Shown: positions 594 to 64,000, numbered from the stretch's first letter. The stretch: 64,000 nt of DNA from Pseudomonadota bacterium (GCA_039195235.1 JBCCVO010000001.1:20933-84932), one strand, 5' to 3'. The notes: generated by a model from the sequence alone, not told the origin. Translations and numbers: made by a program.

Positions 594-1526
594 TTATTCG
601 TGGTCCATCGCTCCATCCGGATTATCGGCAAACACGCTCTGAAACTCCCGCATCAGCCATGCGCGGAAAGCTCTTACCTTTGCGGAGTGTCGTCGCACCT
701 CCGGGTAGACCAATCTGAACTTGGTACCCGGCCAAACCACTGCCTTGCCCACCCTTTGCAGTTTGCGATCTGCGATCTCGGCCGTGAACAGCGTCGAAGC
801 CAGGATCGCAATGCCGTCCCCACTCGCTGCGGCGGCCGCATCGAGCACCTGGGAATCGAACTGCAATCCGCGCGGAACGCTACCGTCATTGATCCCGGCC
901 CGGTTCGCGCAGCGCGTATCATCCCACAACTGCCACCAGGGATTGCCAGGGGAGATCCGGTATTCGTCCAGAATTGACGGGTCTTCAGCCTGCAAATCAG
1001 CGTGACGCGCGATGAAGTCGGGACTGGCGAAAGGCGCGATCCCCAGCCGCATCAGGAAATGCGAGACCAAAGATGCAGATACGTCCCGCGACAAGCGGAT
1101 GGCGACATCGCACTCACCAGCTTCGAGATCGACATACGCATCGCTTACATCAAGACGCACCGCGATCTCGGGATGCTCCAGCTGGAACTTGCCGAGACGC
1201 GGGGCGAGTATCTTCGTCGCAAACGTCTGAAAACACGCAATCGACAGCACGGAATCTTCGGCGTCCCCCAGGCTCGCAAACGCGCGCTCCATCGATGTGA
1301 AAGCCTGCGCGATACGTGGCGCAAGCGCTTCGCCAGCGGGGGTCAGTTCCATACTCCGGCCGTTGCGAACGAACAGGATGGTGCCAACACGCTGTTCGAG
1401 ATTCCTGATCTGATAGCTCACGCCAGCCTGCGTGAGACCCAGTTCCTCTCCGGCGCGGGTGTAGTTCCTGTGCCGGGCTGCGGCTTCAAAGGCGCGGATG
1501 GCTGACAAGGGGGGCAGGGCTCGCAT
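594..1526 (-). CDS. LysR-family regulator (GcvA-like)
   Basis: N-terminal LPPLSAIRAFEAAARH...ELGLTQAGVSYQIRNLE HTH; C-terminal KVRAFRAWL; ATG at 1526. Confidence 0.92.
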   Translation of the reverse strand: MRALPPLSAIRAFEAAARHRNYTRAGEELGLTQAGVSYQIRNLEQRVGTILFVRNGRSMELTPAGEALAPRIAQAFTSMERAFASLGDAEDSVLSIACFQTFATKILAPRLGKFQLEHPEIAVRLDVSDAYVDLEAGECDVAIRLSRDVSASLVSHFLMRLGIAPFASPDFIARHADLQAEDPSILDEYRISPGNPWWQLWDDTRCANRAGINDGSVPRGLQFDSQVLDAAAAASGDGIAILASTLFTAEIADRKLQRVGKAVVWPGTKFRLVYPEVRRHSAKVRAFRAWLMREFQSVFADNPDGAMDHE

Positions 1527-1534
1527 CGGCAATA

Positions 1535-1551
1535 CATAAGTTAAACTTATG
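1535..1551. promoter_or_regulatory. LysR-type T-N11-A operator
   Basis: Palindrome CATAAG-TTAAA-CTTATG between divergent lysR and urcA. Confidence 0.7.
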
Positions 1552-1627
1552 ATTATGGCCAGCGTTTGATTGGCCTTCCCACTGAGATTGGATCATCTCT
1601 TGTGCATCGAACACAAGGGAGACCGAT

Positions 1628-1954
1628 ATGAAGAAAGTAGCATTCGCAGTCGCACTTGCGCTTGGAATGGTGTCAAATCCCGCTTTGGCGGATGGTTCGG
1701 AAAAAAGGGCCTTCGCGACCTACTCCGACCTTGATCTGACCAAGGCAGCGGGGCGCGCCACGTTCGACAGGCGGCTCAAAAACGCCATCAACAAAGTCTG
1801 TCAGTCTGATTGGTCACGCTCAGTCCGCGTCAATTCCGAAGCCAGGAAATGCAAGGCGAAGCTGCGCGAGAAAACCACCCCCATGCGCGACGCCATCATC
1901 GCCAAGGCGCAGGCGCGGGCGAGCCGCAATACGCTTGCGGCAAACCCGCGCTGA
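1628..1954 (+). CDS. UrcA-family periplasmic protein
   Basis: Signal peptide; YSDLDLTKAAGRATFDRRLKNAINKVC motif and second Cys; RBS GGGAG. Confidence 0.85.
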   Translation: MKKVAFAVALALGMVSNPALADGSEKRAFATYSDLDLTKAAGRATFDRRLKNAINKVCQSDWSRSVRVNSEARKCKAKLREKTTPMRDAIIAKAQARASRNTLAANPR

Positions 1955-1960
1955 CCTGAA

Positions 1961-1997
1961 CGACCCCGCCTGACGTTGTCCCTGTCAGGCGGGGTCG
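1961..1997 (+). terminator. 14-bp GC-rich hairpin after urcA (terminator-like, no U-tract)
   Basis: CGACCCCGCCTGAC-gttgtccct-GTCAGGCGGGGTCG, perfect inverted repeat. Confidence 0.6.
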
Positions 1998-2072
1998 CTC
2001 AACACCGCGCCGAAGGACCTCGTCGCATAAGCTGAACGCATGGTCCCGGGCCATGAAGTGGCCTTGTCAAAT

Positions 2073-54865: not shown

Positions 54866-54927
54866 CCCCTAAAATCTGCGTAAGTCAGGCTTTGACGGAC
54901 CAGATGCCAACGCTTATCTGGCCGATT

Positions 54928-56793
54928 ATGCAATCGTTCGATGTTCTTGTAATCGGCGGCGGACATGCCGGGGTCGAAGCCGCTTGCGCGGCTGCGCGCA
55001 TGGGTGCGCGAACGGGTCTCGTAAGTTTCGATCTGGATGCGATCGGTGCGATGAGCTGCAATCCCGCGATCGGTGGCCTCGGGAAGGGTCATTTGGTGTG
55101 CGAGGTCGATGCGCTCGATGGAGTTCTGGGCCGGGCCGCCGATGCCGGTGCGATCCATTATCGCATGCTCAACCGTTCCAAGGGTAGTGCGGTGTGGGGT
55201 CCGCGGGTGCAAGCGGATCGTCAGTTGTTCAAGGCCTCAGTGCAGCGTCAGGTGCATGCGCAGGAAAACCTGAGCCTGATTGAAGGCGAGGCAGCTGCTC
55301 TGATCCTTCAGGGTGGAATGGTTGCGGGCCTTGAGCTTTCTGACGGAGCCAAGCTTCATGCACCGCGCGTCATTCTGTGTACCGGCACCTTCCTGGGTGG
55401 AGTGTTGTTTCGGGGCGAAGAACGCTTTGAAGGTGGGCGCATCGGCGAGAACGCAGCGACGCGCCTGGCAGAACAGCTTCGTGGGGTGGATCTGCCAATG
55501 GCGCGGCTCAAGACAGGTACGCCGCCGCGACTTGATGGTCGAACCATCGAATGGGCTGTGCTGCCCGAGCAGCACTCTGACGCGGACCAGTGGACAATGT
55601 CGCCGCTTACCACCGAGCGTTCCAATCCTCAGGTCTTTTGCGCTATTACGCGCACGACCCATGCCGCGCATGATGCGATCCGTGCCAACCTTCATCGCTC
55701 TCCATTGTTCTCCGGTGCGATCGATGCTGCGGGGCCACGGTATTGCCCCTCGATCGAGGACAAGATTCATCGATTCGGAGATCGGGATGGCCATCAGGTG
55801 TTTCTTGAGCCTGAGGGTCTGAACACTCATGTGGTCTATCCCAACGGTATCAGTACATCACTCCCGGTCGATGTGCAGCAAGAGATGCTTCGCGCAATGC
55901 CGGGCCTTGAACGGGTTGAAATGGTCGTGCCGGGCTATGCCGTTGAATACGATCACATTGATCCGCGAGCGCTGACTCCCGATCTGCAGCTTCGCGCTAT
56001 CCCCGGCCTCTATTGCGCGGGGCAGATCAATGGCACGACCGGTTACGAGGAGGCCGCCGCTCAAGGATTGGTTGCGGGCTTGGAGGCGGCCGCAGCAGTT
56101 CTCGGCAAAGAAGCGCCCAAACTTGACCGAGCCAACTCATATATCGCGGTGATGGTCGACGATCTTACTCTGCAAGGTGTGAGCGAACCTTATAGGATGC
56201 TCACGTCTAGGGCCGAGTATCGCCTCCGTCTGCGCGCAAACAATGCATCTTCGCGGCTGACGGGGTCGGCGATTGAAGCCGGCTGCGTGGGTGAGGAGCG
56301 TCGCGAGTGGTTTGAGCGCCGGGAAGCGGCGCGTGGACAATTGTCAGAGGCGTATGGCCGTTCTGTACACGCCCGCGAACTGGCTGATGCAGGGCTCCCG
56401 GTGCGGCGCGATGGTGGTGAGAAGCGCTTCTCCGAATGGTTGCGACATGATGGGCTCGACCTTGATACGCTTGCCCCGTGGCTAGGTGAGGCTGTGCCGC
56501 TTAACCCGCAGCTTGCTGCGGAAATGGCCGAGGATGCAGCTTATGCGCCCTATCTTGCCCGCCAGGATGCAGAGCTACGGGACTTGCGCGCAAGCGAGGA
56601 ACTGCCGTTGCGGTCAGACTTCCCCTATGGTGACGTGCCGGGTCTTTCCAACGAGATGGTTGAACGATTGAGCACCGCCGCGCCGACCACGTTGGCGGCG
56701 GCGGGGCGAGTGCCGGGTGTCACGCCGGCTGCGCTTTCTGCCTTGTTGGTCCATGCTCGCCAAGACGATGCTCGCCTGCAGGGCGTCGTGTGA
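54928..56793 (+). CDS. mnmG: tRNA uridine 5-carboxymethylaminomethyl modification enzyme MnmG (GidA)
   Basis: [50 protein letters not shown]. Confidence 0.97.
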
Positions 56794-56992
56794 ACGCTCA
56801 TCGATTGATTGAAACGGAACAGCAGGCTCGTGATTATGTCGCGCAATGGGGTGATGTTCCTGCTATGGAGCGTCTCGAGCGCTTCATCGATCTGCTTACT
56901 GCAGAAAATCAAAGACAAAATCTGATCAGCAAACCTTCGGAAGCGATGATCTGGCGGCGGCACCTGGCTGACAGTGCGCAATTGCTTGAGTA

Positions 56993-57008
56993 TGTTCCAC
57001 GCGAAACA
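56993..57008. other. parS: parS-like site inside rsmG
   Basis: TGTTCCACGCGAAACA. Confidence 0.7.
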
Positions 57009-57375
57009 CTGCGTGGGGGCCCTGGCACAGGCCGCTGGCTCGACCTTGGCACCGGAGCGGGTTTTCCTGGTATTGTAATTGCCGCTCTCTGCCCGCAAAT
57101 CGATACAGTTCTTGTGGAGTCTCGCGCACGCAGAGTGGAGTTCTTGCAGCGCTGTATTGACGAACTTGACCTTGAGCGATGCACTGTAATTGGAGAGCGT
57201 TTGGAGCGGATAGAGCCCTTTGAAAGCTGGGTCATTTCGGCACGAGCCTTTGCTCCGCTGGAAAAGCTCCTCCGCTTATCCGCACCCTTCTCCACAAAGG
57301 ACAGTCTCTACCTCTAGCCCAAAGGCCGCTCTGCAGCGCAAGAACTGGATGAGCTGAATCGGTCAATTCGGACGA

Positions 57376-57391
57376 TGTTCCACGTGGAACA
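57376..57391. other. parS: parS site inside the rsmG 3' end
   Basis: Perfect palindrome TGTTCCACGTGGAACA. Confidence 0.9.
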
Positions 57392-57490
57392 ATCATTGAC
57401 CGATCGCGATGCGGGTATCATCGTACGATCCTGACCCCGCAAAAGGCGCCACAAGCTTATGGGGCGCGCTAAGGAGGGATTAAGGCCGAT

Positions 57491-58267
57491 ATGCTGACAA
57501 TTGCCATTGCGAACCAGAAGGGCGGGGTGGGCAAGACTACAACCGCCATCAATATTGCCACTGCTATGGCTGCCACTGGTTGGCGCACTCTTCTGATCGA
57601 CCTTGATCCTCAGGGTAATGCGTCCACTGGCATGGGTGTGAGCGCGGATTCTCGCGGTCTTTCAAGCTATGACTTGCTTGTGGATGAGCGCCCGTTGGCC
57701 GACACCATTGTCGAAACCAGCATTCCGGGTCTCGATATCGTCCCAGCAACGCAGGACCTGAGCGGCGCTGAGGTCGAGTTGGTCTCCGTTGAAGAGCGGA
57801 CAGAGCGTCTCCGGCGGGCTTTGGCGAACCATCATGGGCACGAAATCTGCTTTATCGACTGCCCGCCTTCGCTCGGATTGCTGACTTTAAATGCGTTGTG
57901 CGGTGCGGATACGCTCCTGGTTCCGCTTCAATGTGAGTTTTTCGCGCTTGAGGGGCTCAGCCAGCTGCTTCAGACGGTGGAACGCGTGCAACAGCGCTTC
58001 AATCCCTCGCTCGATATCATCGGTGTCGCACTTACGATGTTCGATCGCCGGAACCGCCTGACTGACCAGGTGGCTGATGATGTGCGTGATTGTCTGGGCA
58101 GTCTGGTGTTTGACACTGTCATTCCGCGCAACGTCAGGCTGTCAGAGGCGCCGAGTCATGGCTTGCCTGCGCTCGTGTACGACCACTCCTGTGTTGGTAG
58201 TCGCGCCTATATTGCCTTGGCGCGAGAGCTGATCGGGCGCTTCCCCCCAGAAAGGAAGGCTGCGTGA
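57491..58267 (+). CDS. parA: chromosome partition ATPase ParA
   Basis: NQKGGVGKTT, DLDPQGNA, IDCPPSLG, IPRNVRLSEAPSHG. Confidence 0.96.
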   Translation: MLTIAIANQKGGVGKTTTAINIATAMAATGWRTLLIDLDPQGNASTGMGVSADSRGLSSYDLLVDERPLADTIVETSIPGLDIVPATQDLSGAEVELVSVEERTERLRRALANHHGHEICFIDCPPSLGLLTLNALCGADTLLVPLQCEFFALEGLSQLLQTVERVQQRFNPSLDIIGVALTMFDRRNRLTDQVADDVRDCLGSLVFDTVIPRNVRLSEAPSHGLPALVYDHSCVGSRAYIALARELIGRFPPERKAA

Positions 58268-59265
58268 GCAATAAGTCGACAGATCCTATCCGTTTTTCAG
58301 TACCGCAGCGCGGCCCTGCAGACAAAAAGAAGAAGCTGGGTAAGGGCCTAGGTGCGCTTTTGGGTGAGACCAAGCGAGAGGAACCACTGGTGCGATCCGG
58401 TGACGAGACTGCAACTGACCCAGCGCCATCTGTGGCCCCGCGCTCTGATTCTCCGCTGAAATCGCTCTCAATAGCGTCGATCGAACCGCTTCCTGGCAAC
58501 CCGCGCAAGCATTTTGACGAAGGCGCGCTAGATGAGCTCGCCGGGTCGATCGCCAAGCGCGGCGTGATTCAGCCGATTATTGTGCGTCCACAAGGTAATG
58601 GTCGATTCCAGCTGGTCGCTGGTGAACGCCGCTGGCGCGCGGCACAGCGTGCACGGCTGCATGAAATCCCTGCGCTTGTCCGCGATCTTGATGATCGCGA
58701 GGTGATGGCACTGGCGCTCATCGAGAACCTTCAGCGGGAAGACCTCAATCCGGTAGAAGAAGCGAGGGCTTATCAAAGGCTTGCTGACGATGAGGGCATG
58801 ACCCAGGCTGAAATCGCCCGAATGGTCGAAAAATCCCGTAGCCATGTCGCGAATATTCAACGTCTGCTCAACTTGCCCGAAAAGGTGCTCGATCTGGTTG
58901 AGGCTGGTCGCCTGTCTATGGGTCATGCCCGTGCTCTGATCGGTCAGGACGACGCCGCTACGCTCGCTCAGAGAGCGGTGAACGATAATCTATCGGTCCG
59001 CGAGATCGAAAAGCTCGTTCGCAAGGTTGCAAAGCAGGTCAACGGTCTTGCTGATGGCGGGGCAGGCGGCTCACCACAATCGGTTCGCGATGCGACGAGC
59101 GATGCCGATATCGCTGCGGTTCAGAGTCATCTGGAGGAATTCCTGGGCCTGCCGGTACGGATCAAGGCCGATTCGGACCCGCGATCGGGGGCAGTCACGA
59201 TTCGTTATCGGACGCTCGATCAGCTCGACCTTGTTTGTCAAAGATTGACCGGCGGCGATATTTAA
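58264..59265 (+). CDS. parB: chromosome partition protein ParB
   Basis: LGKGLGALL, NPRKHF, AGERRWRA, ALIENLQREDL, GHARAL. Confidence 0.96.
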   Translation: MSNKSTDPIRFSVPQRGPADKKKKLGKGLGALLGETKREEPLVRSGDETATDPAPSVAPRSDSPLKSLSIASIEPLPGNPRKHFDEGALDELAGSIAKRGVIQPIIVRPQGNGRFQLVAGERRWRAAQRARLHEIPALVRDLDDREVMALALIENLQREDLNPVEEARAYQRLADDEGMTQAEIARMVEKSRSHVANIQRLLNLPEKVLDLVEAGRLSMGHARALIGQDDAATLAQRAVNDNLSVREIEKLVRKVAKQVNGLADGGAGGSPQSVRDATSDADIAAVQSHLEEFLGLPVRIKADSDPRSGAVTIRYRTLDQLDLVCQRLTGGDI

Positions 59266-59497
59266 GACGAAATTAGGCAAGGGGGTTTCAGATAAAGTTC
59301 TGAAGAAAAGGAGTATTTTCCGTTTTCGTCGGAAAGTCCTACTCCACCATTAACCCTACTCACAAACGAAGCTTGAACTCGGGGTTCCTACTTAAGCGAG
59401 GCAATCGGGCAGCACTGTCCGGTTCAGCAGACGTTGCCGACCGACCAGTCCGGTGGCGACTGCAACGGGACAAAGACCACGCTTGGAAGGACCAATA

Positions 59498-60046
59498 ATG
59501 ACCAAGACCATTCGTTTCGGTGCCGCTGGCATCGCCATGTTTGCCGCACTGGGCATGAGCACTGTTGCTCACGCCGACACCGAAACTGCTGACGCACGCG
59601 CAGAAGTTCTCGACGCACTCGTTCTCACCAACACAGGCGCCCTCGATTTCGGCACCATGGTAGTGAGCGGTGCCGGCATCGTTGTGCTGGACTCCGGCAA
59701 CAACCTGACCTGCACCGATCCGGACATCATCTGCTCGGGCACCACTTCGGCTGCTGCATTTGACGTCGAAGGCACCGCCAACAAGGCCGTGACCATCAAC
59801 TTGCCGACCGCAGGCATCAACCTGCGCCACCCGAGCTACAATGCGGGTGTCAGCACCGGTGAGCACACCATCGAGCTGTCGGCTTTCACCTCGAGCGACA
59901 CCAACGCGACTTCGGGCGATCCGGAAGTGACCCTTGATGGTGCTGGCGATGCGACCTTCACCGTTGGTGGCACGATCACCGTCGACGGCAGCGAAGAAGC
60001 AGGCCTGTTCGAAGGCACTTTCGACGTTTCGGTCGAATATTCTTAA
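59498..60046 (+). CDS. DUF4402-family secreted protein, probable pilus subunit
   Basis: Signal peptide ending AHA; LDFG motif; two Cys; C-terminal strand GLFEGTFDVSVEYS; codon choice typical of highly expressed genes. Confidence 0.8.
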   Translation: MTKTIRFGAAGIAMFAALGMSTVAHADTETADARAEVLDALVLTNTGALDFGTMVVSGAGIVVLDSGNNLTCTDPDIICSGTTSAAAFDVEGTANKAVTINLPTAGINLRHPSYNAGVSTGEHTIELSAFTSSDTNATSGDPEVTLDGAGDATFTVGGTITVDGSEEAGLFEGTFDVSVEYS

Positions 60047-60089
60047 AATTGTAGTCGCCGCATAGAGCGGCGCGCAATCGACAAGCGTT

Positions 60090-60121
60090 AGGCCGCGTTC
60101 CTTAGTTGGAGCGCGGCCTTT
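60090..60121 (+). terminator. hairpin after pilin-like gene
   Basis: AGGCCGCGTTCC-ttagtt-GGAGCGCGGCCT with a short T run. Confidence 0.65.
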
Positions 60122-60263
60122 CGCTGTCTTGAGACCAGCCCGGGCGCGCAATCGGGCCATTCTGCTTTAATCAATCTTAACCCTATCCACTTACCAAGCT
60201 CCGTGAAACCACGCACTTCCGCAGCGCATGCGGAGCGCGTCCATTTCGGGGGCCAGCTTAAGA

Positions 60264-61100
60264 ATGTCATTCAAATCCTTGCGCAATTTTGTCCGTAGGG
60301 CTGCAATCGCCACCGCCATTTCCACTTCAGTGGTTGCGCCGTCGGCATATGCCCAGGGCGATCTACTGGTCGCCCCGACACGCGTGATCCTCGATGGCAG
60401 CCGCGGAACTGAAGTGATCCTGAGCAATATTGGCTCGGAAGAAGCGACCTATCGCATTGGGCTCGAGTTGCGCCGGATGATGGAAAACGGACGCTTGGTG
60501 CCGGTCGAAAAAGTCGACGCAAACGATGCCGAAGAGGCGGCGCTCGGCATGATTCGTTATGCGCCACGCCGCATCACACTCCCCCCGGGTCAGCCACAAG
60601 CTGTGCGTCTCGCTGCACGCCCTGGGGCAGACCTTCCCGACGGCGAATATCGGGTCCACATGTCGTTCAAGGCGATTCCAAAGCCTCGCTCGGTCACCGA
60701 CGAGCAACCGCAGTCGGACAGTGTATCGATCCAGCTGATCCCAATCTATGGCGTGACCATACCGATCATCGTTCGTCATGGTCGCGTAGAGGCGCAGGTC
60801 GCGATAAACCAACCAAGCATAATACAGGGCGAGAAGGGCCCCGAACTCGCGGTCAGTCTTAGTCGCGCAGGTGACAGCTCAACCTATGGCGAGCTGCGCA
60901 TCACCAAACCCGGCATGGAAGATCCTGTGGCGCTGCTCCGTGGTGTTGCGATCTATCCAGAAGTGGGCAAACGCGAGCTGCGCATTCAGCTCACGCAGGA
61001 GCAGGCTGCCGCGCTGACTGGTCAGTTGCGGTTCGAATATCGCGAAATGCCTGAGGCCGGCGGCGGTCTCATCGCCGCGGTGGATGCGTTTGTCAGCTGA
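60264..61100 (+). CDS. periplasmic pilus-assembly chaperone (PapD-like)
   Basis: Signal peptide ending AYA; LLVAPTRVIL, YAPRRITLPPGQPQAVRL, DGEYRVHM, GVTIPIIVR. Confidence 0.8.
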   Translation: MSFKSLRNFVRRAAIATAISTSVVAPSAYAQGDLLVAPTRVILDGSRGTEVILSNIGSEEATYRIGLELRRMMENGRLVPVEKVDANDAEEAALGMIRYAPRRITLPPGQPQAVRLAARPGADLPDGEYRVHMSFKAIPKPRSVTDEQPQSDSVSIQLIPIYGVTIPIIVRHGRVEAQVAINQPSIIQGEKGPELAVSLSRAGDSSTYGELRITKPGMEDPVALLRGVAIYPEVGKRELRIQLTQEQAAALTGQLRFEYREMPEAGGGLIAAVDAFVS

Positions 61101-61141
61101 TCCGGCCGATCGGCGGGACGCCCGCTGAGCTCACAACCATC

Positions 61142-64000
61142 ATGTCTATCCATCGTCATCCAATCCTGGGCGCCGCCGCGAACATCGCGGTGGCGTTTAG
61201 CGCGTTTGGTGTCGGTGCAATGGCGCTTTCAGCACCCACGCATGCTCGCGCGGAGGTCGCGCCGGTTTCTGTGTCTACCCAGGGGTCTGCTCAGGTGTCT
61301 GCAGCGCCCGCTGCACAAAGCTGGCAGGCGAATGATGACGATTTCCTGTTCCTCCAACTCGTTGTCGACAGCTACCGTCTGAATTACGACGTAAGGGGGT
61401 ATCAGACTGATCGCGGCGTGTGCCTTGATCTGGCAGATGTCATTCAGTCGCTCGACCTCCCTGTGCGCATCGACAAGAAGTCGCGCCGCGCGACTGGCTG
61501 GCTATTCAGTGAGGATCAGAAGTTCACACTTGATCGCGATTCCAATACAGTACAAAACGTGAACAATGGTCGCGCACCCGTCGCATCCGACATCTACGAC
61601 ACACCGGAAGGGTGGTGCGTCAACGTCAAAGCCCTTTCGCGCTGGTTTGGGATCGATTTCAGACCAGATCTCTTCAATGCGGTCGTTCGGTTGGAGTCCG
61701 AACAGGATCTGCCCTTTATTCAGGCGATCGAACGCAGAAGTCGCGCCGCGCGACTTCGTGGCAAATCCAAAGAGTTCGACCTGTCAAAGTTCCCGACCGC
61801 CGATATGGAGTACCGCGCCTGGCGCACGCCTTCGCTCGACGTGGTTGCTCAGGCCGGCTACCAGACGGGTGGCGCGGTTGGCGGACGTGACGGCGCATCG
61901 GGCCGGGTAGAACTCTACGCAGCGGGCGAGGCGCTCGGCGCCAGCTACACCGCTCGTGTGGCAACCGATGATCAGCTTGTACCGCAAACCGTCCGCGTTC
62001 GCGCCTATCGCAACGATCCTGAGGGCAACCTTTTAGGCCCACTCAAGGCGACGCAAATCGCTATTGGCGATGTTGAGACACTCGCGGGCCGCCTGACGGC
62101 GCAAACCGCGATCGGGCGCGGTGCGTTCGTCACCAATCGTCCGCTGGGGCAGTCATCACGGTTTGATACCACAACCCTGCGTGGAACTTTGCCCGCTGGG
62201 TGGGATGCAGAATTGTACCGCAACGGCCAGTTGATCGCGTTTCAAGACGATCGCGGTGACGGGCGGTACGAGTTCCTTGAAGTTGAGCTGTTCTTCGGCC
62301 GCAACGAGCTCGAAGTGGTACTGTACGGCCCGCAAGGGCAGATCCGCCGCGAGAAAACGTCTGTGCCGATCGGGATGAACCAGATTGAGCCGGGTCAGAC
62401 CTATTATTGGGCCGGAATCGTTCAGAACGAACGTGATCTGATTGATCTTGGCAACGGGGCGCAGCGTGCGCCACCACGATGGCGTGGCGGCGTTGGAGTC
62501 CAGCGCGGCCTCGATCAAAGGACCAGCGCCGCTCTTGGATTACAGAGCCTCGTCTTTGCTGGCGCCCGTCGCAACTATGCGGAGGGCGCGGTTGCACGCA
62601 GTTTCGGGCGATTGCAGCTCGAACTGGGTGGTGCCCACGAGTTCGGCGCCGGCAGCGTTGCCGAAACGAACGCGGCAGGGCGTTTTGGACGGTTCAATTT
62701 CGGTGCGAACGCGCTCGTCACCTTTGGCAACTTTACCAGCGAGTTCGTAACTGACGAACTGGACTATCGCGCGGGCCTGACATTCGATACATCCTTGCGG
62801 ATGGGCAAGTTCGGTCTGCCGATCCAGGGTGACTTCACCCATTCCAAGCTCGCCAATGGGTCAGAGGTTAACGAGTTCTTACTGACGACTTCTGTCAATG
62901 CGGGGCGCGTGGCGATCTCGGCGCAGCTGGATCATCAGGAGCAGAGCGCCAGCGCAACATCTGTGGCACGGCAGGATACGCGGTTGCGGCTCCTCGCGAA
63001 CACGCGACTGAAAGGGATCCGTCTGCGTGGTAACGCCACGTTCCTGCTCAATGGTCGTCAGCAGGGCCTCGATTCTGCGAATATTCGGATCGACAAGGAG
63101 CTCGATCGCGATTCTGAACTGCAGGGCCAGCTGGAATACACAGAGCGATTCAACGAATTCCGCATCGCGGCAGGATATTCCCGCCGGTTCGACAAGCTTT
63201 CGCTCCGCTCTGATGCCTTTGTAACGAGCCGTGGTGGGGTGGGCGCGCAGGTGCAGCTTGCCTTCAGCCTCGGACCGAACCCGGCGGCCGGAGGCATCCG
63301 TGTGACCCACAACAAGCTCGCTCGCAATGGTCAGGCCGATGTCACCGTCTTCAGAGACGAAGATGGCGATGGTGTGCACGATCCGGGTGAGGACGTAATC
63401 AAGGATGTGCTGGTCGAAGCGGGTTTGCGCAGCACCGACGCGATAACCGGTGAGAATGGTCGTGCCATCGTTGATGACCTACGCCCGTTCCGTCCAGTAC
63501 TGGTCGGTGTCGATGAGAGCACGCTCGGTGATCCGTTTCTCGCTCCAGCCGTCAAAGGCATCGTGATCACGCCGCGTCCGGGTGTCATCGCGCAAATCGA
63601 GCTACCGATCACGCCGACTGGTGAGATCGAAGGGACTCTGTTCAATCCTTCGGGCGTCGAGCAACCGGGCGTCGAGCTGGAGCTGGTAGACGGTCGCGGT
63701 AATGTCACTGCATCGACGATGAGCGAATTCGACGGGTTCTTCCTGCTGCAGAAGGTGCCCTATGGCGAATACACACTGCGCGTCGGCGAGGAGGCGGCGA
63801 CCACGCTGGCTGTGCAGTCGATTCTGACGAGCGAGAAACTCGTGAAGGGTCTCCGAGTTAGCCGCGATGAGGATGTCGTGCGGCTTGGCTCGATCAAGCT
63901 GCGCCTGGCCGACACGGCTGATGATCCGGAAATTGACATGACAACAATTGCTGTCGCGCCGCCACCTGCATCGGGTGCCCTGCCCTTGCCGGAAGCGCCG
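61142..64000 (+). CDS. large outer-membrane usher-like protein (no stop within window)
   Basis: Hand translation from ATG 61142, same frame in spot checks up to 64000 (953 codons): signal peptide, GWDAELYRNG...VVLYGPQGQ plug-like region, beta-strand-rich middle, FRDEDGDG and SEFDGFFLLQKVPYGEY C-terminal domains. Absent from the ORF track because it has no stop. Confidence 0.8.
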   Translation, partial: MSIHRHPILGAAANIAVAFSAFGVGAMALSAPTHARAEVAPVSVSTQGSAQVSAAPAAQSWQANDDDFLFLQLVVDSYRLNYDVRGYQTDRGVCLDLADVIQSLDLPVRIDKKSRRATGWLFSEDQKFTLDRDSNTVQNVNNGRAPVASDIYDTPEGWCVNVKALSRWFGIDFRPDLFNAVVRLESEQDLPFIQAIERRSRAARLRGKSKEFDLSKFPTADMEYRAWRTPSLDVVAQAGYQTGGAVGGRDGASGRVELYAAGEALGASYTARVATDDQLVPQTVRVRAYRNDPEGNLLGPLKATQIAIGDVETLAGRLTAQTAIGRGAFVTNRPLGQSSRFDTTTLRGTLPAGWDAELYRNGQLIAFQDDRGDGRYEFLEVELFFGRNELEVVLYGPQGQIRREKTSVPIGMNQIEPGQTYYWAGIVQNERDLIDLGNGAQRAPPRWRGGVGVQRGLDQRTSAALGLQSLVFAGARRNYAEGAVARSFGRLQLELGGAHEFGAGSVAETNAAGRFGRFNFGANALVTFGNFTSEFVTDELDYRAGLTFDTSLRMGKFGLPIQGDFTHSKLANGSEVNEFLLTTSVNAGRVAISAQLDHQEQSASATSVARQDTRLRLLANTRLKGIRLRGNATFLLNGRQQGLDSANIRIDKELDRDSELQGQLEYTERFNEFRIAAGYSRRFDKLSLRSDAFVTSRGGVGAQVQLAFSLGPNPAAGGIRVTHNKLARNGQADVTVFRDEDGDGVHDPGEDVIKDVLVEAGLRSTDAITGENGRAIVDDLRPFRPVLVGVDESTLGDPFLAPAVKGIVITPRPGVIAQIELPITPTGEIEGTLFNPSGVEQPGVELELVDGRGNVTASTMSEFDGFFLLQKVPYGEYTLRVGEEAATTLAVQSILTSEKLVKGLRVSRDEDVVRLGSIKLRLADTADDPEIDMTTIAVAPPPASGALPLPEAP

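Follow-up and report, generated by a model that had tools for sequence, protein, structure and literature searches.

The window, a 64,000-nucleotide stretch of DNA, carries near its 3' end (59498-64009, the last nine nucleotides lying just beyond it) an operon that sits just after parB in an Erythrobacter-like genome. The upstream gene was identified as parB by domain search (ParB_N, 7.6e-34; HTH_ParB, 5.5e-32; ParB_C, 2.9e-12). Only one consensus promoter-like site occurs near the spacer that follows, at 59235-59262; it falls within the end of parB and does not count as functional evidence. From 59498 to 64000 the sequence contains a gene for a DUF4402 protein, a hairpin, a gene for a second exported protein, and a large ORF. 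As the initial annotation proposed, the three genes are co-oriented on the + strand and their products begin with signal-peptide-like N termini; the ORFs are all intact and free of internal stops. No adhesin gene or second pilin gene was found in the operon. An orphan DUF4402 paralog is encoded elsewhere in the genome, with no match to the chaperone or usher within 1.5 kb of it. Profile comparisons and predicted structures identify the three genes as remote homologs of the pilin, chaperone, and outer-membrane usher of chaperone-usher (CU) pili. The features are as follows:

59266..59497, + strand: parB-to-pilin spacer (232 nt, read from the sequence), presumed promoter and leader region
59498..60046, + strand: DUF4402 subunit gene, predicted major pilin (182 aa; Pfam PF14352)
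59498-59575, + strand: subunit signal peptide, about residues 1-26 (cleavage site judged by eye)
59576-60043, + strand: mature subunit, 156 aa (cut at the cleavage site read by eye)
60084..60131, + strand: GC-rich hairpin, then a T-rich tract, in the pilin-chaperone spacer (inverted repeat, RNA fold)
60264..61100, + strand: predicted periplasmic PapD-like chaperone gene (278 aa from ATG 60264; profile comparison)
61142..64000 (stop ends at 64009), + strand: predicted outer-membrane usher gene (955 codons; model, Foldseek, hhalign)
61334..61696, + strand: usher N-terminal periplasmic domain, residues ~65-185 (model secondary structure, pLDDT; usher profile)
61820..63307, + strand: usher translocation barrel, residues ~227-722 (DSSP strands; barrel assigned from the strand list, not from coordinates)
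62168..62371, + strand: plug-like beta domain within the barrel, residues ~343-410 (six strands between barrel strands 6 and 7)
63329..63571, + strand: usher C-terminal domain 1, residues ~730-810, with an acidic DEDGDG..DPGED loop (model)
63587..63901, + strand: usher C-terminal domain 2, residues ~816-920, prealbumin/SdrD-B-like (model, sub-threshold Pfam)

The first protein matches Pfam DUF4402 (PF14352) with an E value of 1.2e-18 and 68.5 bits (cut-off, 25.2). Its earlier description as a small Thr/Gly/Asp-rich protein with two Cys holds for the mature form, taken from the cleavage site judged by eye: T makes up 14.7%, G 11.5%, A 11.5%, and D 9.0% of the 156 residues, there are two Cys, and the C terminus reads ...GLFEGTFDVSVEYS. 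The mature protein has 24 acidic and 3 basic residues (pI ~4.05), and the term "acidic fiber" used below refers to this composition only. Neither Cys column is conserved in the family (34 of 71 sequences have Cys in one, 36 of 69 in the other). The mature N terminus (residues ~1-11) carries a conserved alternating A5, A7, A9, V11 stretch that aligns with the donor-strand region of SCPU pilins. Compared by hhalign with 10 SCPU pilins, the subunit family profile aligned at 92.7% probability (E 4.3e-7; 124 columns); the alignment starts at the N-terminal strand and extends to a C-terminal G.Y....V.V.Y motif. When the AlphaFold model (pLDDT 95.7) was compared with 48,161 chains in an unbiased VIA search, its best match was CsuA/B in the Csu pilus (rmsd 3.2 over 110 residues) at a Z of 7.5, which falls in a range that, by the tool's own guidance, models lacking a true match often reach; 30 of the 50 rows listed were CU pilins or pilin domains. 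Foldseek found no match to this model at E<=0.001, and Caf1 chains were among the weak matches (Foldseek E 0.014-0.05; VIA Z 5.7). The fold evidence from the subunit alone is therefore weak. The proposal that DUF4402 is a pilin gains support from the SCPU profile homology and from the pilin-like behavior of the subunit in the predicted complex described below.

The hairpin that the initial annotation placed 3' of the DUF4402 gene was recovered as the top inverted repeat of the region (arms at 60084-60101 and 60108-60125), folding into a 12-bp core with a U-rich tract after it. None of 200 shuffled versions of the pilin-chaperone spacer folds as well as the native sequence (z, -3.96). All 11 related loci examined have a hairpin in this spacer, with energies of -25.7 to -34.1 kcal/mol and differing sequences. 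The predicted function of the hairpin is that of a partial terminator or a transcript-stabilizing stem-loop.

For the middle protein, public gene calls use the ATG at 60264; an alternative in-frame ATG at 60228 would give 290 aa (ORF 60228-61100). The window copy had no match in Pfam or NCBIfam at E<0.1. Its assignment as a PapD-like chaperone was nonetheless upheld by hhalign comparison of the family profile with five PapD_N-positive chaperones (97.5%; E 6e-12; 218 columns, spanning both domains), in which the invariant Pro101 of the family aligns with the invariant Pro of PapD_N chaperones. PMC4654587 describes this proline as the sole invariant residue across the CU superfamily. Searching the PDB with the chaperone profile yielded weak matches only, every one at E>0.004, and six of eight of these were pilus chaperones (E 0.012-0.38). 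One family member (G034) meets the PapD_N cut-off, and in the Atlas the chaperone neighbors clusters that bear the name fimbrial chaperone, in which 11% and 46% of members carry PapD_N. A conserved Arg on the first strand (..APTRV.., 22 of 25 sequences) falls within the predicted interface with the subunit. Where non-classical chaperones have their conserved carboxylate-anchoring Arg, 24 of 25 sequences have an aligned His, and 18 of 25 have an Arg two residues before this position.

The large ORF, previously put at 953 codons or more, has 955 codons in the genome; its stop ends only 9 nt past the window, so almost nothing of the ORF is missing. The AlphaFold model (pLDDT 88.4; pTM 0.77) begins with a signal peptide and low-confidence tail (residues 1-56), followed by the N-terminal domain, 6 strands, an inserted 6-strand domain, 18 strands, two C-terminal beta domains, and a disordered Pro-rich tail. 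This predicted architecture accords with an usher barrel containing a plug. Structural searches point the same way: Foldseek ranks 1 to 18 in the PDB were all FimD/PapC (E 8.4e-29 to 7.4e-13), with the first other protein at E 4e-9, and the top 15 VIA rows were likewise all FimD/PapC (Z 17.3-19.9), aligned over 536-562 residues in 11 rows and 361-480 in the other four. VIA rows below these were other barrels, at a Z of 15 and ~285 residues aligned. Model residues 211-921 align to FimD 125-833; within this span, residues 229-710 match the FimD translocation domain (139-656) with a Z of 19.3 and an rmsd of 5.3 over 386 residues.

Profile comparison extends the usher assignment to sequence families. 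An alignment of 97 usher family sequences matched eight Pfam-positive alphaproteobacterial ushers (hhalign, 99.7%; E 1.3e-25; 700 columns), taking in the plug motif; an HMM built from those eight matched 27 of the 97 members at E<=1e-3 (Z set to 1e6). The N-terminal domain aligns to the N-terminal part of the usher profile with an insertion. The plug-like motif noticed initially (GWDAELYRNG...GRYEF...GRNELEVVLYGPQGQ) aligns column by column with the V.VYVN...GPF...G...D.LGR plug of Pfam-positive ushers. The reported C-terminal DxDGDG and Ig-like domains were also located: DEDGDG spans residues 739-744, within a conserved RVF.D.NGDG..D.GE consensus (97-sequence alignment), and C-terminal domain 2 is prealbumin/Ig-like, with CarboxypepD_reg (31.7 bits) and SdrD_B (27.0 bits) both just under the Pfam cut-off and a PDB profile match to the SdrD B domain (E 7.3e-9). 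A C-terminal SPOR domain exceeds the Pfam cut-off in 5 of 47 family members (one also has LysM), which would fit a periplasmic C terminus, as in ushers. Pfam Usher (PF00577) had no match in the window usher or in its ~70% complete genome; its cut-off was reached by none of the 47 family members, two of which gave sub-threshold matches. Searching PDB sequences with the usher profile found no usher.

Structure prediction of the pilin-chaperone pair, suggested in the initial annotation, gave ipSAE values of 0.78, 0.67, and 0.79 in three runs, against 0.00 for the best control; in a benchmark, 116 of 157 solved complexes but 2 of 215 mismatched pairs scored at this level, counts that hold only roughly because custom alignments were used here. 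At least 80% of contacts agreed between runs, and partner pLDDT was at least 80. The G1 strand of the chaperone (residues 151-167, SDSVSIQLIPIYGVTIP) is modeled parallel to the last strand of the subunit (143-156, GLFEGTFDVSVEYS), and the chaperone A1 strand (residues 31-40) packs against subunit residues 12-19. Chaperone residue 164 contacts subunit residues 17 and 153, placing the donated strand between the first and last strands of the subunit. The predicted complex thus shows donor-strand complementation geometry. It also bears on whether DUF4402 could be a complete fold: as modeled, the subunit accepts the chaperone strand like an incomplete pilin. As the tool itself cautions, part of the score may stem from solved chaperone-pilin complexes that the model has memorized.

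At the family level, the order parB-pilin-hairpin-chaperone-usher was found in 11 of 11 related loci examined. Because gene order and spacer hairpin recur in every one, these features go beyond chance. The subunit is the fastest-evolving part (39-52% identity in related loci, versus 57-66% for the chaperone and 53-68% for the usher), and the window copies keep the conserved residues of each protein family. A match was found in 36 of 101 genomes of the taxonomic family, and the chaperone query matched 30 of 401 genomes sampled across the class. In 20 of 29 of those class loci, an usher-family ORF is located no more than 1.5 kb from the chaperone; among 30 hand-picked small upstream ORFs, 18 match DUF4402 at E<=0.01, 17 of them above the cut-off. 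The usher family comprises 3741 clusters at 50% identity, and the pattern GW[ED][VA]ELY[RH]N picked out 598 relatives among 599 candidates. Carriers found in these searches are Sphingomonadales and other Alphaproteobacteria.

Together, the homologies and models indicate that the operon probably assembles a thin, acidic surface fiber by donor-strand complementation and exchange. Subunit, chaperone, and usher, with their signal-peptide-like N termini, would be exported by Sec. In the periplasm, the chaperone would capture the subunit by laying its G1 strand beside the subunit's last strand, as in the predicted complex, with the subunit C terminus probably seated in the inter-domain cleft near the conserved Arg40 and His132. 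The complex would then dock on the usher N-terminal domain, where, by homology to SCPU and Csu pilins, the N-terminal extension of the next subunit (mature residues ~1-11) would displace the chaperone strand and link subunits head to tail. By homology to FimD/PapC, the polymer would exit through the 24-strand barrel once the plug shifts, and the two C-terminal domains would hold the chaperone-capped base. The conserved hairpin may raise pilin message above that of chaperone and usher. With a single pilin gene and no gene for an adhesin in the operon, the fiber would be a homopolymer; more speculatively, the orphan DUF4402 paralog might join it. The fiber would probably serve in attachment or biofilm formation.

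A working CU system could also yield a capsule- or coat-like layer of thin flexible polymers, like Caf1 or a spore-coat-U-like coat. The single subunit gene, the absence of an adhesin gene from the operon, the strongly acidic subunit (pI ~4.05; 24 acidic versus 3 basic residues), and Caf1 among the weak structural matches all lean this way. However, the subunit's best relatives are the rod-forming archaic pilins (CsuA/B at a Z of 7.5, and SCPU), and we consider such a layer unlikely; the assembly mechanism would be identical in either case. A greater departure would be an usher-fold protein serving as some other outer-membrane exporter or pore, with DUF4402 a secreted or surface-attached monomer that does not polymerize. 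Pfam models do miss both usher and chaperone, other beta-barrels score Z 13-15 against the usher model, and the orphan DUF4402 gene stands apart from any chaperone or usher. Yet the usher alignments cover nearly twice as many residues as those of other barrels (536-562 in 11 of the top 15 rows versus ~285) and extend beyond the barrel to the plug and C-terminal domains. Each of the three proteins is homologous to its CU counterpart, the A/A/A/V N terminus of the subunit aligns with the SCPU donor-strand region, and the predicted complex has donor-strand geometry. This exporter reading is accordingly very improbable.

The operon could instead be a silent or decaying remnant with no product, as its patchy occurrence in the family (36 of 101 genomes) and the lack of a match to the query in the one other genome of the same genus might suggest. 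Against decay, the three ORFs are uninterrupted, the window copies retain family-conserved residues, and order, hairpin, and sequence are conserved across the 11 loci at 39-68% protein identity; of the alternatives weighed, a remnant seems the most remote.

The reading as a fiber-assembling CU operon can be set beside known systems. The archaic (sigma) CU pili, namely Csu of Acinetobacter baumannii, CupE of Pseudomonas aeruginosa, and alphaproteobacterial SCPU-type operons, share the three-part machine and, judging from the predicted complex, a similar strand-donation geometry. The likeness extends to each component: by profile the subunit is a homolog of SCPU pilins (92.7%) and by structure it is closest to CsuA/B in the Csu rod, the usher and chaperone profiles align with those of SCPU-type operons at 99.7% and 97.5%, and the chaperone keeps the superfamily's invariant proline. 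There are also differences. Pfam places the subunit in DUF4402 rather than SCPU, and its family does not conserve the Cys pair that is invariant in archaic pilin domains according to PMC4654587. The chaperone family has His (24 of 25) in place of the marker Arg of non-classical chaperones (CsuC Arg89), and the usher and the window copy of the chaperone fall under the Pfam Usher and PapD_N cut-offs. Relative to archaic ushers, the operon's usher is ~150 residues longer: its N-terminal domain is larger, C-terminal domain 1 bears an acidic DxDGDG loop, and C-terminal domain 2 is SdrD-B/prealbumin-like. Whereas the csu gene list in PMC4654587 has four subunit genes, the DUF4402 operon has one pilin gene and no tip adhesin.

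Over nearly its full length, and at a sequence identity of 10-14%, the usher finds its best structural matches (Z 17-20) in the ushers of two classical Escherichia coli systems, the type 1 (FimC/FimD) and P (PapD/PapC) pili; sequence and profile searches of the PDB with the usher did not find FimD/PapC. To our knowledge, FimD and PapC are the only solved ushers. Classical pilins carry a C-terminal motif of a penultimate Tyr and a Gly 14 residues from the end, and the DUF4402 subunit has both. The conserved first-strand Arg of the chaperone resembles the A1-strand Arg of classical chaperones, exemplified in PMC4654587 by Arg20 of Caf1M. Unlike classical pili, the operon has no gene for a tip fibrillum, adaptor, or terminator subunit. 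Classical CU systems occur only in Beta- and Gammaproteobacteria according to PMC4654587, whereas the DUF4402 system occurs in Sphingomonadales and other Alphaproteobacteria.

The Caf1 (F1 antigen) system consists of one subunit, one chaperone, and one usher, the same minimal gene content as the operon; the likeness of Caf1 to the DUF4402 subunit is at the fold level only (Z 5.7). Consistent with the initial statement that no experimental description was known, a full-text literature search for DUF4402 / PF14352 found no paper. Within the literature searched, no describing paper was found for this operon, a predicted CU branch that standard annotation misses; curated models recognize only one of its three parts, DUF4402.

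The window derives from a draft genome (∼70% complete, 69 contigs), and the closest public homologs of its proteins carry the names Erythrobacter, Qipengyuania, and related ones. The initial annotation had given the last of three co-oriented genes at least 953 codons and had called for inspection of the genes after position 64000. Read past the window, this ORF has 955 codons in the genome sequence; its stop codon ends 9 nt beyond the window, and the gene after it converges from the opposite strand. Because of this end point and the convergent neighbor, the operon consists of exactly three genes, which are listed here with the genes before them in window coordinates.

54892 to 59265, directly 5′ of the pilus operon: mnmG, rsmG, parA, and parB, in that order
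59498 to 60046, co-oriented, forward strand: ORF 1, 182 aa, DUF4402 subunit
60228 or 60264 to 61100, co-oriented, forward strand: ORF 2, 290 or 278 aa, chaperone
from 61142, co-oriented, forward strand: ORF 3, usher, 955 codons

The four upstream genes form a classical origin-proximal set, with rsmG, parA, and parB confirmed by Pfam. Within rsmG (GidB), an in-frame TAG at 57315 to 57317 ends the ORF at 175 aa (Pfam model 3 to 139 of 184). The frame continues beyond it for ∼38 further codons (...PKGRSAAQELDEL...FHVEQS...), a stretch that we take to resemble the RsmG C terminus, and the TAG may stem from faulty sequencing or assembly or be a genuine nonsense codon of the draft genome. On the other side, in a genome stretch reaching past the window end (L002), two minus-strand genes lie downstream of the operon and point toward it: one for an exported, Pro-rich protein of 308 aa that contains a glycine-zipper segment (L002 5965 to 6891; Rick_17kDa_Anti and YMGG matches, both subthreshold) and one for a 177-aa GAF-domain protein (L002 7039 to 7572).

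All 11 family-level loci share one gene order: parB, subunit, chaperone, usher. Since the operon follows parB in 11/11 related genomes examined, we regard it as an old insertion at a fixed chromosomal site that was vertically kept or repeatedly lost. Its occurrence is patchy: 36 of the family's 101 genomes have the system, and the query did not detect it in the only other genome available for the genus. Cultured carriers include Erythrobacter longus DSM 6997, Novosphingobium arvoryzae KCTC 32422, and Qipengyuania sp. DGS2-2. Across the 11 loci, divergence is greatest in the subunit (39 to 52% identity, compared with 57 to 66% for the chaperone and 53 to 68% for the usher). The pilin-chaperone spacer contains a strong hairpin with a U-rich tract behind it, and a hairpin is found in the same spacer in 11/11 loci (−25.7 to −34.1 kcal/mol), with differing sequences. 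An Rfam scan of 59200 to 61300 returned one chance-level match, to a trypanosomatid snoRNA (E = 0.28); a promoter scan gave 2 consensus sites against 0.9 expected, neither of them between parB and the pilin gene; and, apart from the hairpin, no prominent inverted repeat pointed to an invertible promoter switch.

Across the class, an usher-family ORF lay at most 1.5 kb from a chaperone homolog in 20 of 29 loci, and among 30 small upstream ORFs picked by eye, 18 matched DUF4402 at an E value of ≤0.01, 17 of these over the cutoff. The chaperone type was detected in 30/401 class-sample genomes (protein query, E ≤ 0.001) and Pfam-recognized ushers at the cutoff in 10/201, two counts that allow a rough comparison only, given the different criteria (protein query versus curated Pfam cutoff).

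The Pfam-like part of the large ORF is limited to ∼60 C-terminal residues (CarboxypepD_reg and SdrD_B, both below the cutoff), and for this reason its public names are "carboxypeptidase-like regulatory domain-containing protein" and "MSCRAMM family protein"; among 10 distant usher-family representatives, the only public names are "SPOR domain-containing protein" and "hypothetical protein." The Usher family (PF00577) gave no match at an E value of <0.1 in the window usher and is absent from the window's genome (∼70% complete). In a Pfam scan covering 47 of the 97 usher-family members plus long forms, the Usher cutoff was reached by none of the 47, with subthreshold matches in 2. A single-sequence search of the PDB returned no match for the usher, the usher-family profile matched only the C-terminal SdrD-B-like domain there and no usher, and an NCBIfam search of all three operon proteins assigned no family. 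The reading of the large ORF as an adhesin, as the public names (MSCRAMM, collagen-binding) would have it, was dropped because the similarity is confined to those ∼60 C-terminal residues and the remainder is an usher.

The evidence for an usher comes from structure prediction and from profile comparison. An AlphaFold model built with 97 sequences (pLDDT, 88.4; pTM, 0.77) starts with a domain at residues 65 to 185, a helix, six long strands, and a six-strand inserted domain at 343 to 410, and continues with eighteen long strands and beta domains at 730 to 810 and 816 to 920 (strands counted by DSSP on the predicted model). This domain order is the usher plan of PapC and FimD. The comparison with FimD and PapC by Foldseek that the initial annotation had proposed came out in its favor: ranks 1 to 18 are all FimD or PapC (E = 8.4e−29 to 7.4e−13), and the next kind of protein follows at 4e−9. 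In VIA, a structure search not relying on Foldseek, the best 15 rows are likewise all FimD or PapC (Z = 17.3 to 19.9), 11 of them aligning 536 to 562 residues, with model residues 211 to 921 on FimD 125 to 833; non-usher barrels come next, at a Z of 15 and with ∼285 residues aligned. The usher-family profile also aligns with a profile of eight Pfam-positive alphaproteobacterial ushers over 700 columns (99.7% probability, E = 1.3e−25), the GWDAELYRNG...GRYEF...LYGPQGQ stretch mapping to their plug region. An HMM made from the same eight ushers matches 27 of the 97 family members, and a member from sampled genome G067, adjoining a chaperone homolog, has a subthreshold PF00577 match (E = 7.6e−5). 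The large protein is predicted to have usher architecture: one N-terminal and two C-terminal periplasmic domains and, between them, a large barrel into which a plug domain is inserted after strand 6.

By exhaustive search, the usher family comprises 3,741 clusters at 50% identity (E ≤ 0.001), including 1,590 with an E value of ≤1e−30. A SPOR domain exceeds the cutoff at the C terminus of 5 of the 47 scanned members (P0397, P0409, P0410, P0415, and P0476), one of which also carries LysM and Big domains. These tails fit a periplasmic usher C terminus and would tie that end of the usher to peptidoglycan. Several members show weak Cu_amine_oxidN1-like matches in the N-terminal domain.

The window chaperone has no Pfam match at an E value of <0.1, PapD_N (PF00345) included, and its single-sequence PDB search gave chance-level matches only; the PapD_N cutoff is just reached by one family member, from another genome. 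In public records it goes by the names "molecular chaperone," "fimbrial biogenesis chaperone," and "PapD." We built a 25-sequence alignment from the homologs in the 30/401 sampled genomes of the class. Compared with five PapD_N-positive chaperones, this profile gave 97.5% probability (E = 6e−12) with both domains covered, and Pro101, present in 25/25 sequences, falls on the invariant proline of the PapD_N chaperones. Pakharukova et al. 2015 (PMC4654587) describe the strand D1 proline as the sole residue invariant across the chaperone-usher superfamily and an F1-strand arginine (CsuC Arg89), which anchors the subunit C-terminal carboxylate, as a hallmark of archaic and alternative chaperones. 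The column of CsuC Arg89 holds His132 here (His in 24/25), with a two-residue alignment shift possible at such distance; Arg130, which precedes it by two residues and faces the same side of the strand, is Arg in 18/25. In the first strand (..LLVAPTRV..), Arg is found in 22/25 sequences.

Against the PDB, the chaperone profile gave weak matches only, six of the eight being pilus chaperones. The top match (E = 0.004) is no pilus chaperone but EfmWxLIP1, a WxL-interacting protein of Enterococcus faecium. A chaperone-guided donor-strand exchange pilus involving a DUF916 protein in a Gram-positive organism is reported in a 2026 preprint (10.64898/2026.10.17.759780), and a deep relationship may exist between the two chaperone types.

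The subunit scores 68.5 bits on DUF4402 (PF14352; E = 1.2e−18; cutoff, 25.2; model 3 to 129 of 129), the sole Pfam family given for it; SCPU (PF05229) was not assigned. Behind a signal-peptide-like N terminus comes a mature form of 156 aa in which Thr, Gly, Ala, and Asp are abundant and whose pI is ∼4.05. Its final 14 residues are GLFEGTFDVSVEYS; in the 72-sequence family alignment, the Gly of this stretch is found in 70 of the 71 subunits that have no gap there, and 69/72 have the penultimate Tyr. The mature N terminus has a conserved alternation of small and hydrophobic residues (A5, A7, A9, and V11). The AlphaFold model is confident and all beta (pLDDT, 95.7). Foldseek returned no match to it at an E value of ≤0.001, and the weak matches listed are mainly chaperone-usher pilins, led by the PapG pilin domain (E = 0.007). 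In VIA, run against 48,161 chains, the top match was CsuA/B of the archaic Csu pilus (Z = 7.5; root mean square deviation, 3.2; 110 residues), a score that is weak on its own because Z values of <8 are common for unrelated models; chaperone-usher pilins or pilin domains make up 30 of the best 50 rows listed. Single-sequence PDB searches gave chance-level matches only (E = 0.05 to 1.3 for chaperone and subunit), and the subunit-family profile found nothing significant there, with CsuA/B at an E value of 6.

Homology of the subunit to SCPU pilins is visible at the profile-profile level only. The 72-sequence DUF4402 profile matches that of 10 SCPU pilins from alphaproteobacterial archaic operons at 92.7% probability (E = 4.3e−7), in an alignment that begins at the N-terminal strand region, ends at the C-terminal motif, and sets the N-terminal stretch of the subunit on the N-terminal strand of the SCPU pilins. 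We regard this match as the decisive evidence on subunit homology. The two columns of the cysteine pair hold Cys in 34/71 and 36/69 aligned subunits, whereas each of the 10 SCPU pilins has Cys at both positions. Elsewhere in the genome, an orphan DUF4402 gene (contig C18, 32549 to 32932, minus strand; 1495 to 2058, minus strand, in the surrounding stretch L004) encodes a 187-aa protein (Pfam E = 6.1e−10) with a Cys-rich N-terminal stretch and the C-terminal end ...VPISVEYP. It has no chaperone or usher within 1.5 kb, and its neighbors, judged by eye, are a ribD-like ORF and other unrelated-looking ORFs. This protein might join the same fiber as a minor subunit.

In a structure prediction of the pilin-chaperone complex, also proposed at the outset, chaperone residues 31 to 278 and the mature subunit, each with its own alignment, gave ipSAE values of 0.78, 0.67, and 0.79 across runs, against 0.00 in all three controls; the ipSAE mark is attained by 116/157 solved complexes and 2/215 mismatched pairs, counts that apply roughly here because custom alignments were supplied. 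At least 80% of contacts were common to the runs, and partner pLDDT was at least 80. In the predicted complex, chaperone 155 to 166 runs parallel to subunit 144 to 155 and chaperone 31 to 40 lies against subunit 12 to 19; chaperone residue 164 contacts subunit residues 17 and 153, His132 and Arg40 of the chaperone lie within the interface, and subunit residues 1 to 11 are free. These predicted contacts have the geometry of donor-strand complementation, with a chaperone strand parallel to the last strand of the subunit and predicted to complete its unfinished Ig-like fold. The score measures likeness rather than binding, and a high value can arise when the model has learned from related complexes that are already solved.

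If the solved homologous systems are a guide, each subunit, once exported, would be held by the chaperone through strand donation, and the complex would be received by the usher N-terminal domain. The N-terminal extension of the next subunit would displace the chaperone strand, a step for which there is indirect evidence in mature residues 1 to 11, given their freedom in the predicted complex, their conserved alternation, and their match to the SCPU N-terminal strand. The subunit chain would exit through the unplugged usher barrel to form a fiber that may serve in attachment. The hairpin would keep the pilin message in excess. The analysis shows homology for all three parts, along with a predicted usher architecture and a predicted geometry of the complex; from these, export, strand exchange, fiber formation, the influence of the hairpin, and any part in attachment are inferred.

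Chaperone-usher pili are the best understood adhesive fibers of Gram-negative bacteria, and their classification and censuses depend on recognizable ushers. Here the usher goes publicly under carboxypeptidase-like regulatory domain or MSCRAMM names, and the domain that makes up the subunit has had no function assigned. If the reading holds, DUF4402 gains a function, thousands of misnamed outer membrane proteins turn out to be ushers, and the range of the pathway extends to widespread environmental bacteria, Erythrobacter and Novosphingobium among them, whose ecology depends in important ways on attaching to surfaces. Mechanistic work on the pathway could also draw on the variant chaperone cleft and the usher C-terminal domains as informative comparisons supplied by nature. 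A full-text search, within nonsubscription literature, found nothing on DUF4402 or PF14352. Titles and opening lines of abstracts held nothing relevant on chaperone-usher systems in Erythrobacter and, among papers on chaperone-usher systems with AlphaFold, nothing on the DUF4402 type. For pilus biology and for annotation, the system holds real interest; it involves no new principle.

We conclude that the system most likely works like a chaperone-usher pilus and is a member of that superfamily, to which its chaperone, by sequence, belongs as a PapD-like two-domain protein with the invariant proline. A broader proposal, for and against which we find the balance about even, is that DUF4402 operons constitute a separate, large, unstudied major branch beside the classical, alternative, and archaic ones. 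Such a branch would have ushers of distinct architecture (the N-terminal domain enlarged, the C-terminal domains of calcium-loop and prealbumin type, and sometimes peptidoglycan-binding SPOR/LysM tails), a His-based chaperone cleft, and acidic homopolymer fibers in free-living environmental bacteria, and usher-based pilus censuses would have missed it entirely. Compared with chaperone-usher parts as Pfam defines them, the window usher and chaperone fall below the Usher and PapD_N tests. Unlike archaic (sigma) systems, the DUF4402 system lacks SCPU membership with its conserved Cys pair, and its chaperone possibly lacks the F1 arginine. The C-terminal domains of the DUF4402-type usher are of a different flavor.
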